From Candidatus Aenigmatarchaeota archaeon (GTDB lineage Archaea > Aenigmatarchaeota > Aenigmatarchaeia > CG10238-14 > SpSt-28): a stretch of 13,474 nt of DNA. Shown one piece after another: positions 261 to 4,020 of the stretch (its first letter is position 1; the number at the start of each line of letters is the position of its first letter). The stretch is taken from positions 1 to 13,474 of the forward strand of contig JAVVFY010000013.1 of the NCBI GenBank assembly GCA_032249395.1, in the 5' to 3' direction. Under the pieces are notes generated by a model. It was not told the DNA's origin, ran no database searches, and worked only from the letters and a program-made list of their open reading frames with translations. The translations under genes were made by a program, and so were the position numbers.

Positions 261-413
261 AAAATAATATTGTTTTTTTAAATAGCTTTTCGCTACTTTT
301 TATGTATATAAAATGAGAAATTGAGAAGAATTAATCCTAAGCCTAAAACTCATTTTTCTTTTTGTTCAATGTTAAGAAAGAATAAACAAATCTAAAAATA
401 AAGTAGTCTCATC

Positions 414-458
414 CTCAAGGCAAGGTTGATTCTAAATGCCTTAGAGGTGGGTGCCGCC
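414..458 (-). other. 3' strand of the 16S pre-rRNA BHB processing stem
   Basis: RNA CCCACCUCUAAGG-CAUU-UAG-AAUCAACCUUGCCUUGAG pairs with the 5' leader CUCAAGGUAAGGUUGAUU-GAUG-AUA-CCUUAGAGGUGGG (3953-3996): 4-bp central helix with two 3-nt bulges, a canonical BHB. Confidence 0.93.
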
Positions 459-500
459 TTGCACACAAAACTAAGGAGGTGATCCAGCCGCACCTTCCAG

Positions 501-583
501 TTGCCGGGTCGGTAAAGTTAAATCACCTCCTTACTCATCATTCGTCAGAGTCAAGCCATTATATCATCTACTTTACCAACCCT
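501..583 (-). ncRNA. 83-nt BHB intron after ~A1513 (helix 45); putative box C/D guide RNA
   Basis: Terminal stem GGUUGGUAAAGU/ACUUUACCGACC, central helix GCCG/CGGC (relaxed BHB); removal restores GCCGUA|CUGGAAGG. Inside: AUGAUAU(561-567)-guide-CUGA(545-548)-CGA-AUGAUGA(535-541)-guide-UUUA(519-522). Confidence 0.88.
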
Positions 584-715
584 TACGGCTACCTTGTGGC
601 GACTTAGCCCCCCTCGCGGAGCTCCCACTCGACCCTTTTGGGGCCTCGAGGGAGCTCCACTCGGTTGGCTTGACGGGCGGTGTGTGCAAGGGGCAGGGAC
701 GTATTCGGCGAACGT

Positions 716-802
716 GTTCATGGTGGCAAGATGATCTTTGGCTCTATTTCCTCATCTTTTAATCTGGAGTAGTGCATGCTAATCATTCTCACCTTACCAC
801 CA
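716..802 (-). ncRNA. 87-nt BHB intron after ~A1363 (helix 43 loop); putative box C/D guide RNA
   Basis: Canonical BHB: GGCGAACG-UCAU-CA^U-GGUGGUAAG / CUUGCCACC-AUGA-AC^A-CGUUCGCC. Inside: AUGAUUA(780-786)-guide-CAGA(763-766)-UUAA-AAGAUGA(752-758)-guide-AAGA(735-738). Confidence 0.9.
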
Positions 803-960
803 TGATGACGTTCGCCTACTAGGGATTCCGGCTTCACGAGGGCGAGTTACAGCCCTCGATCCGAACTGGGCGCGCTTTTAGGGGATTTGCTCCCCCTTTC
901 GGGGTGGCATCCCATTGTAGCGCGCATTGTGACGCGCGTGTGGCCCAGGGCTTTCGGAGC

Positions 961-991
961 TTTCGCCGAGAGAGCCAGCAGCTCAGCTCGT
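961..991 (-). other. 31-nt BHB-like mini-intron after U1205
   Basis: Interrupts the conserved GGUCCGUAU|GCUCCGAA; bulges AU^A and AA^G, imperfect central helix CCGU/GCGA, intron helix CGAG/CUCG then GAGC/GCUC. 1205 is a known archaeal 16S intron site. Confidence 0.88.
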
Positions 992-1288
992 ATACGGACC
1001 TACCGTCGCCCCCTCCTTCCTCCCACTTATCGCGGGCAGTCCCCCATGAGTGCCTCCCTTCCGGAGAAGGGAATGGCAACATGGGGCGGGGGTCTCGCTC
1101 GTTAACCGACTTAACGGCACGCCTCACGGTACGAGCTGACGATGGCCATGCACTACCTCTCGGCTCGTCTGGTAAGGTCTTCAGCCTGACCTTCATCCTG
1201 CCGTCAGCCCTGGTAAGATTCTCGGTGTTGAGTCCGATTGAACCGCACGTCCCACCCCTTGTGTGCCCCCCCGCCAATTCCCTTAAGT

Positions 1289-1338
1289 TTGGTGTAGGGG
1301 GAAGCACACCCTCTAGCCAATTCTGGCTTCGCCCCAAA
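1289..1338 (-). other. 50-nt BHB mini-intron after A908
   Basis: AAG-GGUG-AA^U... / ...CACC-AA^A-CUU; removal restores GUGAA|ACUUAAG. 908 is a known archaeal intron site. Confidence 0.92.
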
Positions 1339-1449
1339 TTCACCCTTGCGGGCGTACTCCCCAGGCGGCCCGCTTAACACTTACGCTCCGCCACCGCACG
1401 CTCCCGAAGAGCGTGCGACAGCAAGCGGGCATCGTTTACGGCTAGGACT

Positions 1450-1553
1450 TTCCCGCATGAGTTAGAGAAAATCCTAGCCATATGGGAGCAAATCATATAT
1501 CAGAGGATTAGATATTCCTCATCTTTAGAATCGGAAGATACCCTAACTCATGT
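1450..1553 (-). ncRNA. 104-nt BHB intron after ~U801; putative box C/D guide RNA
   Basis: CCCG-GU^A-CAUGAGUUAG / CUAACUCAUG-CGGG-AA^A; removal restores AUACCCCGGU|AGUCC. Inside: AAGAUGA(1519-1525)-guide-CUGA(1500-1503)-UAU-AUGAUUU(1490-1496); no clear D box. Confidence 0.88.
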
Positions 1554-1632
1554 ACCGGGGTATCTAATCCCGATTGCTCCCCTAGCTTTCGCCCCTCACC
1601 GTCGGACCCGTTCCAGGCAGCCGCCTTCGCCA

Positions 1633-2327
1633 CTCACCCAGCAGGAGTCATATCATATTGCTAAGCTTTTTAATTTTTTCTGGGTGGAAAATTGTAATTT
1701 TTTCTCGAAAATTACGAAAATTGTTATTGCCTGTTATCCAAAATCTTAGAGAAATAACCTCAATTCCATTCTTTTTTGTTTTTAATTGATCATGTTTGAC
1801 AGTTGATGCCTTTATTCCCAAATCATCCAACATTTGAATTATTTGGAGGAGATATCTTTCTAAATCAGGTCTTAACTCTATAATTTTTGATGCTTTGAAC
1901 ACTATTTGTTTTGAATTACTTGAATCTCTAAAATATCCCTCATCATCAAATATTGCACCAAGAAATGAAGACTTTATTTTATCATCTCCTTTAAAGATCC
2001 ATTCAGGTATTGTAGTTGGTTGAGTAATTTTAGAACCAATTGGCGCGCCTCTTTCTGAAAGAAATTTTCCAACTCTGCTAGGGTATTGATACCTTAATAT
2101 TCCTCCTATAGAAGTCCCTACATTGTATTTGATATTACCGAAAGTTTTAATTACAAGTTCTTTGACTTTTCGTTGAAGAACATTGTTGGAATTTGTATAG
2201 ACGAAGTAATATTTGGTTTTATGGATTGAAGCATCGCCAAAGACATGACCAATCAATCTGGCAATCGCTGTTTCTCTCTCCATAAACTGTTTTTTAATGT
2301 TTATTTTAATTTTCTGACTCCTGCTGA
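1633..2327 (-). mobile_element. 695-nt BHB intron after G722 carrying a homing endonuclease gene
   Basis: CACC-AG^U-CAGCAGGAGUCA / UGACUCCUGCUG-GGUG-AG^U; removal restores CACCAG|UGGCGAAGG. AT-rich interior containing an ORF. 722 is a known archaeal intron site. Confidence 0.93.
1648..2283 (-). CDS. Intron-encoded two-motif LAGLIDADG (DOD) homing endonuclease
   Basis: Motif 1 ARLIGHVFGDASI, motif 2 SSFLGAIFDDEGY, intein-type IPEWIF segment, C-terminal F...I.IFHPEK..KL. Confidence 0.9.
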   Translation of the reverse strand: MERETAIARLIGHVFGDASIHKTKYYFVYTNSNNVLQRKVKELVIKTFGNIKYNVGTSIGGILRYQYPSRVGKFLSERGAPIGSKITQPTTIPEWIFKGDDKIKSSFLGAIFDDEGYFRDSSNSKQIVFKASKIIELRPDLERYLLQIIQMLDDLGIKASTVKHDQLKTKKNGIEVISLRFWITGNNNFRNFREKITIFHPEKIKKLSNMI

Positions 2328-2362
2328 CTGGTGGTCCGCATGGGATTAACGGATTTAACCCC

Positions 2363-2485
2363 TTAGGGTGGATAGTGCAGTCTAAACACTAAAATAGAAT
2401 ACACTCTAGACTATGAGCTAAATCTTAATTCTAAAAATCATTTCATCGCATAAAAGCTCAAAGGTACGCACACTACACTATCCAT
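2363..2485 (-). other. 123-nt BHB intron after ~A687 (helix 23); possible degenerate C/D-like RNA
   Basis: GGGG-UA^A-UGGAUAGUGUAGU / ACUGCACUAUCCA-CCCU-AA^G; removal restores GGGGUA|GGGGUUAAAUCC. Only 35 nt of exon separate it from the 722 intron. Confidence 0.9.
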
Positions 2486-2986
2486 TACCCCATGCGTACC
2501 GCTGCCCTCTCCCGGTCCCGAGCCTGGTAGTATCCCAGGCAAGCCCTGCAGTTTGCTGCAGGATTTCACCTGGGACACACCAAGCCGGCTACGGGCGCTT
2601 TAAGCCCAATAATCGTGACCACCACTCGGGGCGCGGGTATTACCGCGGTGGCTGGCACCCGTCTTCCCCACCCCTTCCTCGCCCTCCCGTTTTCAGAGGG
2701 CAACAGCCCCAGCAGAGCTGGGGCACTCCGGGTCCCCTCGTCGGGCGTTAGCCCATTGCGAAGGTTTCGCGCCTGCTGCGTCCCGTAGGACCTGGGCTCA
2801 TGTTTCAGAGCCCATCTCCGGGCTCCCACTCTCATGGCCCGTAGGCGTTATCGGCTTGTCGGGCCATTACCCCGACAACAACCTGATACCCCGCAGTCCC
2901 ATCCTCGGGCGGCTACGAACACCCTTTGAGGATAGGGGCCTTCCAGCACCCTATCCCTATGGGGTATTAGCCCCAGTTTCCCGGGA

Positions 2987-3790
2987 TTATCCCCATCGGG
3001 CTACCTGTAAAGCTAAGGCAGAAAGATCGTTAATAAAAATAAAATCAAAAGCGTCTTTTAACAACTCTTGTTGATATGGTGTTATTGGCAAATTTGAAAA
3101 CAAAACTAATACTGAAGTTATTTCTGGATAAAGTTTTTTTAATCTAAAGCCTCTTAGTGCAACTCTTTCAATTATTGCATATCTGTGAGAGTATTTTGTT
3201 GATGAAGTAGAGGTAACAAGAATTGCTATTTTCTTTTTTGGAATGAAAATATCTACATTTATTTTTCCCACATATTTGTGAACTTCAATATCGCTTTCGC
3301 TAAGACCACCGTTTTTAAGGTATTCTATTACTTTCTTTTCGTCTTCTCTCACTATTTCTCTTCTTGCTGCTTTTTCTAGTATTTCGCGATAATTGTTTGA
3401 AGAAATATAGTTGATTATGCTTTTTCTTATTTTGTTCTTAATTTCTTCTCTTTTTTGAGGAAAGAATATCTTCTCCAGATTTGTATAGAAAAGTTTGTCA
3501 ACATCTTTAGAGTGGCTTATAGTTTCGATGGTCTCTTGAATGAAAGCCATTAATTTTTTTAATTTTGTATGATTTCTAATTTGCTTAATTCTACCACATT
3601 CGTAATCGCTGATTGATGGATCTACGTTTCTCTTAAAATCTTCTTGCTTAATTCCTCTGAGTATTCTAAAAATCTTTAGGCATTTTGGATTTGTTTTGAT
3701 ATAATCTTCGTTTATTTCTTTGAAATTATTTGTCGCTTTTTTGACTTCGTTGAACAATTTTATTACTTCGCTTATATTCGAGTTTACCAT
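2987..3790 (-). CDS. Intron-encoded protein: XRE-type HTH plus C-terminal PD-(D/E)XK/Vsr-like nuclease fold (candidate non-LAGLIDADG homing endonuclease, possibly inactive)
   Basis: LKIFRILRGIKQEDF...SISDYECG resembles HTH_3; EKKVIEYL...IEVHKYVGKINVDIFIPKKKIAILVT resembles a restriction-endonuclease-like core. The linear stop codon lies in the exon, beyond the 3' splice site. Confidence 0.7.
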   Translation of the reverse strand: MVNSNISEVIKLFNEVKKATNNFKEINEDYIKTNPKCLKIFRILRGIKQEDFKRNVDPSISDYECGRIKQIRNHTKLKKLMAFIQETIETISHSKDVDKLFYTNLEKIFFPQKREEIKNKIRKSIINYISSNNYREILEKAARREIVREDEKKVIEYLKNGGLSESDIEVHKYVGKINVDIFIPKKKIAILVTSTSSTKYSHRYAIIERVALRGFRLKKLYPEITSVLVLFSNLPITPYQQELLKDAFDFIFINDLSALALQVARWG

Positions 3791-3833
3791 ATCTTAAATA
3801 TGGTGAAATGTATTTAAAAGCTTTACAGGCAGT
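2995..3833 (-). mobile_element. 839-nt BHB intron after ~G144 carrying an ORF
   Basis: CCU-CGGG-AG^A-CUGCCUGUAAAGCU / AGCUUUACAGGUAG-CCCG-AU^G-GGG; removal restores CCCUCGGGAG|GGGGAUAAUCCCGGGAAAC. Confidence 0.93.
3811..3826 (-). promoter_or_regulatory. Putative intron-internal BRE/TATA promoter for a leaderless transcript of the intron ORF
   Basis: GTAAAGCTTTTAAATA; the TATA centre is ~25 nt upstream of ATG 3790 and closely matches the rRNA promoter AAAAAGCTTTAAATA. Confidence 0.5.
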
Positions 3834-3952
3834 CTCCCGAGGGTAGGTTGACTGCGTATTACGGAGCAGGTCGCCGAGGGCCTTCCCCTCACGACTTGCA
3901 TGGCTTAGCCGGACCCGGATAGCAGTGGCCTCTGGCGGGATCAGCCAGAATT

Positions 3953-3996
3953 GGCGGGCCCACCTCTAAGGTATCATCAATCAACCTTACCTTGAG
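3953..3996 (-). other. 5' strand of the 16S pre-rRNA BHB processing stem
   Basis: Inverted repeat of 414-458, forming the canonical BHB. Confidence 0.93.
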
Positions 3997-4020
3997 CTCT
4001 TAGCTCAAGGAGAAATTTTC

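Follow-up and report, generated by a model that had tools for sequence, protein, structure and literature searches.

A 16S rRNA gene interrupted by eight insertions

The contig JAVVFY010000013.1 of a Candidatus Aenigmatarchaeota archaeon, analysed here over its entire length of 13,474 nucleotides (nt) as a single 13.5-kb window, belongs to a genome of 0.75 Mb (753 kb; 31% G+C; 25 contigs) and carries on its minus strand a complete 16S ribosomal RNA (rRNA) gene (474–3951) with eight insertions and a mature product of about 1466–1497 nt. Three of these insertions, the mini-introns I8 (501–583; 83 nt, after Escherichia coli position 1513 in the 5′ strand of helix 45), I7 (716–802; 87 nt, after position 1363 in the helix 43 loop) and I4 (1450–1553; 104 nt, after position 801), are, on the evidence of comparative sequence analysis, probably archaeal box C/D guide RNAs living as bulge-helix-bulge (BHB) introns in the gene of their own target. 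I8 and I4 are of C/D type, and I7 is better described as C/D-like, with degenerate D′ and D boxes. A first-pass annotation of the window had already read these three introns as C/D guides directed against their host 16S rRNA, and the boundaries it gave them were reproduced to the nucleotide when all insertions were mapped by alignment to intron-less 16S genes from relatives (1473–1497 nt). E. coli numbering was verified by alignment with an E. coli rrs gene.

The extent of the gene itself required correction. The Rfam small-subunit rRNA match (archaeal) spans 474–3110 on the minus strand, with its first 100 positions poorly aligned, and is too short because it misses exon 1, which is separated from the rest of the gene by an 839-nt intron located after E. 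coli position 144. The true 5′ end, ATTCTGGCTGATCCCGCCAGAG (3930–3951), is identical in relatives and sets the end coordinate at 3951. Several Rfam/Infernal 16S calls in relatives likewise end prematurely on the 3′ side, within the helix 45 intron.

Box architecture of the three mini-introns

All features described below lie on the minus strand and are given in RNA sense. I8 consists, in order, of a stem, box C AUGAUAU (561–567), the D′ guide AAUGGCUUGACU (549–560), a kink-loop (K-loop) made of D′ CUGA, the linker CGA and C′ AUGAUGA (535–548), the D guide GUAAGGAGGUGAU followed by UUAA at the position of the family box D (518–534), and the closing stem. Box C lies 12 nt upstream of D′, and the distance from C′ to UUAA is 13 nt. 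Within the D′ guide, UGGCUUGAC is a perfect 9-nt complement of GUCAAGCCA (666–674; E. coli 1405–1413), the start of helix 44, whereas the D guide forms 12 base pairs (bp) with the 16S 3′ tail AUCACCUCCUUA (472–483; E. coli 1531–1542), the last two bases of which fall past the Rfam end. The motif CTGA-N2-6-RTGATGA occurs only twice in the 753-kb genome, and one of the two occurrences is in I8.

The core of I4 (1490–1522) comprises box C AUGAGGA (1516–1522), the guide AUAUCUAAUCCU (1504–1515), D′ CUGA (1500–1503), the linker UAU and C′ AUGAUUU (1490–1496). Its segment UAUCUAAUCC perfectly complements the 10 nt GGAUUAGAUA (1561–1570; E. coli 785–794) in the 790 loop, only 7 nt upstream of the 5′ splice site of I4 itself. 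Three more segments are antisense to the same neighbourhood: GGGUAUCU, followed by CCGA (1531–1543), pairs with AGAUACCC (E. coli 790–797), and UUGCUCCC (1484–1491) and GGCUAGGA (1472–1479), together spanning 1472–1491, are directed against both strands of helix 24. The summed length of its 16S matches of at least 8 nt was reached by 4 of 1000 shuffled versions of the intron.

In I7, alignment places box C AUGAUUA at 780–786, the guide CAUGCACUAC at 769–778 and D′ CAGA at 763–766 (763–786 overall), with 13 nt between C and D′, followed by the 7-nt linker UUAAAAG and C′ AUGAGGA (749–755; alignment A3). The guide is an exact 10-nt complement of GUAGUGCAUG (1147–1156; E. coli 1048–1057) in the helix 34 region.

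Across the three elements, box C keeps an AUGA core with a 3′ half that varies relative to RUGAUGA, the C–D′ spacers measure 12 (I8), 13 (I7) and 12 nt (I4), and the duplexes of 9, 10 and 10 bp end 1–2 nt before D′. By the established rule that methylation falls on the target nucleotide paired to the fifth position upstream of the box (N+5), the D′ guides point to A1408 (I8), A1050 (I7) and U788 (I4). The complements and target nucleotides listed in the first-pass annotation proved exact. The box layout that it assigned to all three introns holds for I8 and I4, in which a CUGA D′ box is joined to C′ by a 3-nt linker, and fails in I7, where D′ is the noncanonical CAGA and the linker is 7 nt rather than 3–4 nt. 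Similarly, a second guide is found in I8, where it pairs with the 16S 3′ tail, whereas the second spacers of I7 and I4 lack a conserved target. Terminal stems predicted by RNAfold are strong for I8 (z = −4.6) and I7 (z = −4.0) and not for I4 (z = −1.4), a result that neither supports nor refutes the box pairing because kink-turns are outside the RNAfold model.

The introns are spliced

A BHB motif could be drawn by eye at each of the three introns, in line with the first-pass description. The motif of I7 is a canonical hBHBh′ with the central helix UCAU/AUGA and bulges CAU and ACA, and that of I4 is likewise canonical, with a CCCG/CGGG helix and bulges GUA and AAA. That of I8 is relaxed, with a GCCG/CGGC helix and bulges UAA(G) and AAC, one of which possibly has 4 nt. 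In each case, a cut after the second bulge nucleotide restores the conserved mature 16S sequence.

Splicing was examined by comparing positions 400–4000 with contigs of three hot-spring metatranscriptomes, from three studies, and one DNA run. Exon joints in the RNA contigs connect 500 to 584 (I8; two of the three RNA runs), 715 to 803 (I7; all three) and 1448 to 1553 (I4; all three, with 104 nt removed at 1449/50–1553). The segments 2995–3833, 2363–2485, 1632–2326 and 961–991 are skipped in every RNA run as well, and 50 nt at about 1289–1338 in two of the three. The DNA run yielded no exon–exon joint, and its contig is continuous from 813 to 4000. The introns are thus missing from RNA contigs, whereas the DNA retains them. 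Splicing at all eight predicted sites is therefore real, with joints in two or three of the three metatranscriptomes, as read from assembled contigs.

Circularly permuted RNA contigs of 724–725 nt and 869 nt represent stable circles of the 695-nt and 839-nt introns. Other RNA contigs join position 3972 back to 435 (two of three RNA runs) and correspond to a circular pre-16S intermediate released from the BHB of the processing stem. A UGAUGA motif is located in the 5′ leader (3974–3979), immediately beside the 3972 cut. The genome encodes the corresponding machinery, with two genes for the splicing endonuclease EndA (PF01974) and one for RtcB (PF01139).

The I8 guide is widespread and resides in tRNA and rRNA genes

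A sequence-only covariance model, R1, built from nine copies (alignment A1), matched 80 of 118 genomes and 36 of 46 genera of the order (I8 at E = 5.7e-18), nearly always in a single copy per genome, and 50 of 151 genomes sampled from the class. Among the 72 copies examined, 67 could be parsed for boxes. CUGA is found at D′ in 62 of the 67, RUGAUGA at C′ in 48 and, 12 nt before D′, a 7-mer of the form xUGAxxx in 45; the D′–C′ linker has 3–4 nt in 48, with an inserted hairpin in some copies, and the second spacer has 12 nt in 43 copies and 13 nt in another 14. At box D, 38 of the 67 have UUGA, and the family as a whole uses UUGA, CUGA or GUGA. The C-stem of the kink-turn (K-turn), which flanks the 3-nt bulge before the GA of box C and follows the GA of box D, has a mean of 2.86 contiguous pairs in 49 parsed copies, as compared with 0.87 when partners are shuffled between genomes (maximum of 1000 shuffles, 1.41), and many different complementary sequences are in use. 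These pairings describe a canonical, covarying kink-turn in the I8 family.

These copies differ in location. The 16S 3′ region harbours 44 of the 72, spread over at least four insertion points: the 5′ strand of helix 45, which is also the site used in the window (23 copies), between AAGUCGCC and AC (11), between GGGGGCU and AAGUCG (7) and the 3′ half of the helix 45 loop (1), with assignment failing for two copies. The remaining 28 lie outside 16S, 27 of them within an intron-containing transfer RNA (tRNA) gene (24 called tRNA-Ser(UGA)) and one at a contig end. These tRNA hosts were recovered by ARAGORN with introns allowed (-i), no tRNA being found there without the intron option. Outside the order, 14 copies comprise nine in intron-containing tRNA genes (six called Ser-UGA), two in 16S and three unassigned ones with similar flanks. 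On this distribution, the I8 element is apparently a guide of the whole class that normally resides in the tRNA-Ser(UGA) intron and has entered the 16S 3′ region on several occasions. The tRNA-Ser site is probably ancestral because it is phylogenetically the widest, being used in f1-g3, f2, f3, f4 and f5 as well as in other orders. In the class-level tRNA-Ser introns (L294–L304), the A1408 spacer is kept and the longer D′–C′ linker contains a conserved GCGG; their second spacer differs, so that the second target would differ between orders. In the genome under study, the tRNA-Ser(UGA) gene (G000 C5:26684–26803, minus strand) has a 33-nt intron that contains CUGA-UUAAA-AUGAAGA and no guides, which looks like a decayed remnant of the guide intron found there in relatives.

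Guides change together with their 16S targets, which is the covariation that the first-pass annotation had proposed to look for, and this holds for both the I8 and the I7 families. For the D′ guide of I8, GGCUUGAC faces GUCAAGCC at the start of helix 44 in 28 genomes in which both were read, GGUUUGAC faces GUCAAACC in three, GGUUUGAC pairs with GUCAAGCC through a G·U pair in three, and GGGUUGAU faces AUCAACCC in two, with three further copies having one distal mismatch each. For the D guide, UAAGGAGGUGAU in the window matches the 16S tail AUCACCUCCUUA, UUUGUAGUGAU matches the tail AUCACUACAAA in G013 and UUUAUGGUGA matches the tail UCACCAUAAA in G011. The UUGA box of the family puts the N+5 position of the D guide at C1535.

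Relatives of I7 and I4

The I7 family (model R3) occupies the same site in the helix 43 loop in the genus of the window (g1) and in several genera of family f2. Five members (G061, G062, G065, G076 and G097) have a canonical CUGA D′ box one nucleotide after the duplex. Guide and target were both read in 11 genomes, and in 10 of them every variable position is paired: CACUAC with GUAGUG in the window, G037 and G076; CACCAC with GUGGUG in G006–8, G061, G062 and G065; and GCAGCAG with CUGCUGC in G039. The exception, G097, has a single A·G mismatch.

For the I4 family (model R2, in which I4 has E = 5.7e-24), 19 of 25 examined matches lie at the same site after E. coli 801. Five further matches are stand-alone canonical C/D small RNAs (sRNAs) in genomes without that intron (G018, G012, G020, G026 and G029). 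Two of them come from genus g2, including G012, the 16S gene of which is intron-less. The G018 sRNA reads AUGAUGA-AUAUCUAAUCCU-UUGA-AAU-AUGAUAG-12/13 nt-UUGA, and the G012 sRNA reads AUGAUGA-CUAUCUAAUCCA-UUGA-UUG-AUGAUAU-12 nt-CUGA. These stand-alone canonical sRNAs, which have the same guide, confirm the boxes that had been assigned to I4 from the window alone. In genomes of family f3, C/D units form chains (C, 12 nt, D′, 4–5 nt, C′, 12 nt, D, 4–5 nt, then C again) that string together three or four guides, as in L246 (G026:C28:3657–3705), L244 (G029) and L247 (G020); one guide per chain is the U788 guide, and the chains may be multi-K-loop or polycistronic C/D RNAs.

Statistical background and the C/D machinery

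In the shuffled-intron control that the first-pass annotation had suggested, the observed longest match was reached in 63, 48 and 11 of 1000 whole-intron dinucleotide shuffles, which is only modestly significant. Tests tied to box position were more discriminating. Outside the rRNA genes, 72 of 13,949 YUGA sites in the genome (0.52%) have a 16S complement of at least 9 nt ending 0–2 nt upstream; in the five mini-introns, two of four YUGA sites have such an upstream complement to mature 16S. The pattern RUGA-N3-N12-YUGA occurs at 79 sites genome-wide, and the sole two with at least 9 nt of 16S complementarity are I8 and I4. Fibrillarin (PF01269), Nop5 (PF01798) and L7Ae (PF01248), the proteins expected if the annotation was right, are all encoded, each above the Pfam cut-off.

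Full dual-guide C/D regular expressions had no match in the genome of the window, a null that does not show stand-alone sRNAs to be absent because the elements of the window fail it too, owing to their degenerate D boxes. The pattern TTGACTCTGA-N2-5-TGATGA, run over genome contigs, gave chance matches in bacteria and no usable homologue among the matches listed; one candidate, L045, was rejected as coding sequence. When 34 insertions of 40–260 nt from 17 16S genes were screened for YUGA boxes accompanied by at least 9 perfect bp with the 16S of the host, hits were confined to the three families. Other mini-introns (for example, at reference positions 640, 866, 1008, 1053 and 1153) could not be called as guides by the same measure.

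The remaining insertions

Five other insertions, all on the minus strand and defined by the same alignment, complete the inventory. The 839-nt intron (2995–3833) is associated with a 267-aa open reading frame (ORF; 2987–3790) in which no Pfam family scored above its curated cut-off, and the 695-nt intron (1633–2327) carries a 211-aa ORF (1648–2283) for a LAGLIDADG endonuclease.

The 123-nt intron (2363–2485) contains the series GUGUGCGUACCU-UUGA-GCUUUUAUGC-GAUGAAA and an 8-nt complement, UGCGUACC, to the exon segment GGUACGCA (2493–2500), which immediately precedes the splice site of the same intron. G006 and G008 share the motif, the complement alone is not significant, and this intron may be a fourth one of guide type.

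The 50-nt, G+C-rich intron (1291–1340) is without box motifs. It includes AGCCAGAAUUGG, a 12-nt complement to the junction (3943–3954) at which the 5′ leader, ending in CCA, meets the first nine bases of 16S, AUUCUGGCU, and it repeats the exon motif GAAUUGGC, which adjoins its insertion site near the central pseudoknot. The G+C-rich segment of 31 nt (961–991) was initially taken as an expansion segment. Its absence from RNA contigs of all three metatranscriptomes makes it a probable intron of very small size, provided that the contigs in question do not derive from relatives without the insertion. In the 23S gene (contig C11), a coarse GC scan picked up a single AT-rich insertion, about 730 nt long, and nothing that obviously resembled a mini-intron.

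Discussion

The conserved boxes and their spacing, the covariation of guides and targets, the tRNA-hosted or stand-alone homologues and the encoded proteins uphold the core proposal of the first-pass annotation that the three mini-introns are C/D guides against their host 16S rRNA. That the base pairing with 16S is functional follows from its conservation in three genomic contexts and from the compensatory changes that accompany it. Given the box spacing and the retained protein set, 2′-O-methylation is the most likely predicted activity, above all at A1408 and U788.

Under this guide model, pre-16S rRNA would be transcribed with the guides inside, the splicing endonuclease would cut the BHB motifs and RtcB would ligate the exons, the joining of which is seen at the level of RNA contigs. 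The excised mini-intron would probably be circular, as observed for the two large introns, and, whether excised or still embedded, would bind L7Ae at its K-loop or K-turn and recruit Nop5–fibrillarin. The spacer upstream of the D′-type box would then pair with 16S and, by the N+5 rule, place the 2′-OH of A1408 (I8), U788 (I4) or A1050/G1051 (I7) in the methyltransferase site. The second spacer of I8 would pair with the 16S 3′ tail, with C1535 as the N+5 position in the family; because box D is degenerate in this genus, the pairing may now only hold or mask the tail. The guides may act in cis before splicing or in trans as excised, probably circular RNAs.

Several observations weigh against this model, most of them concerning the state of the boxes in the window. 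None of the three copies has a canonical box D with its kink-turn: at box D of I8, the genus of the window has UUAA or UAAA and the family UUGA, the region resembling a 5-nt deletion when compared with G031, and no canonical terminal kink-turn could be drawn for 501–583; I7 has AAGA at the D position and a 4-nt bulge in its terminal motif; and a search of 1450–1553 for a canonical box D was negative. The D′ box of I7 is CAGA, whose distance from the duplex exceeds that of the canonical CUGA in relatives by one base, and this box together with an extra C shifts the predicted site from 1051 to 1050. In I4, the upstream box is CCGA, as opposed to CUGA followed by a K-loop-like AAGAUGA in relatives. 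The guide duplexes of 9–10 bp are at the short end for archaeal guides, and the U788 guide cannot show covariation because the 790 loop is invariant. No circle of any of the three mini-introns was among the matches listed from the RNA-contig comparison. Finally, the exon–exon RNA contigs could in principle stem from close intron-less relatives, an unlikely source because their flanking exons differ from the window by 0–4 letters and same-genus relatives share most of the introns. Not every guide of the window looks catalytically competent, in particular the D guide of I8, with its UUAA, and the I7 guide, with CAGA and a one-base shift.

With boxes degenerate in this genus, some spacers may serve only to pair with 16S, as chaperones or masks. 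The strongest competing explanation, which we consider unlikely, holds that the introns descend from C/D guides and in this genus act mainly by base pairing rather than methylation. Before being spliced out, they would mask, or block the folding of, helix 24 with the 790 loop, the start of helix 44 and the anti-Shine-Dalgarno tail, and the 30S subunit would become translation-competent only afterwards. The four antisense segments of I4 over both helix 24 strands and the 790 loop fit such a checkpoint, as do the degenerate D′ of I7, the position of two targets next to the splice sites of the introns concerned, and the tail pairing of I8, which in genus g1 reaches 12 bp with the loss of box D, as opposed to 8–9 bp in the rest of the family. 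By contrast, a chaperone without methylation accounts poorly for the intact D′/C′ K-loop of I8 and the intact C-12 nt-D′-3 nt-C′ unit of I4, both spaced exactly as N+5 methylation needs, for the placement of the same units in tRNA introns and stand-alone genes, that is, in trans, and for the retention of a complete methylation machinery in a 0.75-Mb genome.

Purely structural pairing between intron and exon, in which the complementary segments would only fold the precursor and present the BHB to the endonuclease, is far less probable. The targets of I4 do lie 7–30 nt from its splice sites, but those of I8 and I7 are about 100 and about 300 nt distant in the mature RNA, the BHB helices are built from other nucleotides, the box motifs are conserved, and both the stand-alone homologues and the occurrence of the same guide in a tRNA-Ser intron, for which 16S is a separate molecule, contradict the idea. 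Least credible of all is a chance resemblance in decayed homing-endonuclease introns, AT-rich remnants with UGA-rich motifs and short rRNA matches, which could invoke the whole-intron shuffles (p about 0.01–0.06 per intron) and the lack of such matches in the other mini-introns of relatives but is refuted by conservation across the order and class, compensatory changes, homologues in other genomic contexts and a positional background rate of only 0.5%.

With regard to origin, the first-pass annotation had envisioned degenerate introns domesticated as guides, which the distribution of the I8 family makes improbable. Comparative evidence points instead to an existing guide RNA, either a tRNA-Ser intron or a stand-alone sRNA, that probably moved into the rRNA gene, the tRNA site being the widest. 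A broader scenario can be entertained, although we hold it only tentatively. BHB-bounded C/D guides would be mobile introns, and a single-copy guide would have exchanged the anticodon loop of tRNA-Ser(UGA) for sites in the 16S 3′ minor domain, or the reverse, with no fewer than four such sites in use, always near its own targets and maybe via reverse splicing or integration of circular RNA. Once in rRNA, it would act in cis, one guide per ribosome, and splicing may serve as a checkpoint, such that modification must precede release of the decoding centre, the 790 loop and the anti-Shine-Dalgarno tail.

Archaeal rRNA mini-introns have so far been treated as decayed selfish elements. The present ones combine, as we interpret them, a known RNA class with a known intron class in a way that is undescribed, together with evidence for guide movement between a tRNA gene and several rRNA sites. 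The first-pass annotation had considered such guides to be new for rRNA introns, and a full-text literature search, mostly without subscription journals and with ‘C/D’ unusable as a term, found no description of them, nor any RNA-modification function assigned to archaeal rRNA introns in the literature searched. The nearest precedent is the pre-tRNA-Trp intron of Euryarchaeota, which is a box C/D sRNA (Clouet d’Orval et al. 2001; Singh et al. 2004, as summarised in PMC7994747). In that summary, a BHB intron likewise doubles as a C/D RNA with two guides, is released by the splicing endonuclease and targets its host RNA, except that a tRNA is the host, with Cm34 and Um39 as its targeted positions (PMC7994747). 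Here, host and target are both 16S rRNA, three such introns share one gene, and the targets lie in the decoding centre, the 790 loop and helix 34. The accessible text of that 2021 review names tRNA introns, tRNA-linked and intergenic locations as contexts of C/D RNAs, and an rRNA intron is not among them (PMC7994747).

Mobility has a precedent as well. In Nanoarchaeum equitans, also a DPANN archaeon with a reduced genome, a stable C/D-like sRNA resides in the 66-nt intron of a tRNA-Met, and ‘mobile C/D box sRNAs’ were suggested to spread via circular intermediates (Randau 2012, PMC3491384). The host there is tRNA-Met rather than tRNA-Ser(UGA), and the available portion of that report describes neither a location in an rRNA intron nor covariation with a target (PMC3491384). 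Stand-alone sRNAs of Sulfolobus acidocaldarius and N. equitans are predicted to guide methylation at the equivalent of E. coli A1408 (Dennis et al. 2015, PMC4644070), the same predicted nucleotide as for the D′ guide of I8; they are independent genes (PMC4644070). BHB introns with or without homing endonuclease genes are known from the rRNA genes of Thermoproteales and DPANN archaea (Nawrocki et al. 2018, PMC6125680). The insertions studied here resemble them in being BHB-bounded and located at conserved rRNA sites, with two of the eight carrying ORFs, one of them LAGLIDADG; no sRNA is mentioned for archaeal rRNA introns in the text available from that source (PMC6125680). Eukaryotic intron-encoded small nucleolar RNAs (snoRNAs) offer a functional analogy, in that a guide is released from the intron of a gene of the translation apparatus and its supply is coupled to host transcription (PMC7994747).

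Taken at the strength argued above, at least three of the eight introns of a single 16S gene would carry conserved, covarying methylation-guide modules directed against functional centres of that rRNA, namely the A1408 decoding site, the 790 loop, helix 34 and the 3′ tail, and rRNA introns would gain a function. Among prokaryotes, they may be what comes nearest to intron-encoded snoRNAs, with the difference that the guide sits within the RNA it targets, whereas the eukaryotic ones are, to our knowledge, never inside the target rRNA itself. Whether such guides act in cis or in trans becomes directly testable. For annotation, rRNA pipelines truncate genes of this kind, and the guides would escape any C/D sRNA finder in which rRNA genes are masked. 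A single BHB intron moving between a tRNA gene and several rRNA sites bears on the spread of archaeal introns and on the proposed mobility of C/D sRNAs, and, if the mobile-guide scenario is true, many ‘junk’ rRNA mini-introns of DPANN archaea would be relocated guide RNAs. For the archaeon itself, the finding offers a possible explanation of how fibrillarin, Nop5 and L7Ae remain in use in a 0.75-Mb genome in which stand-alone C/D genes are not obvious.

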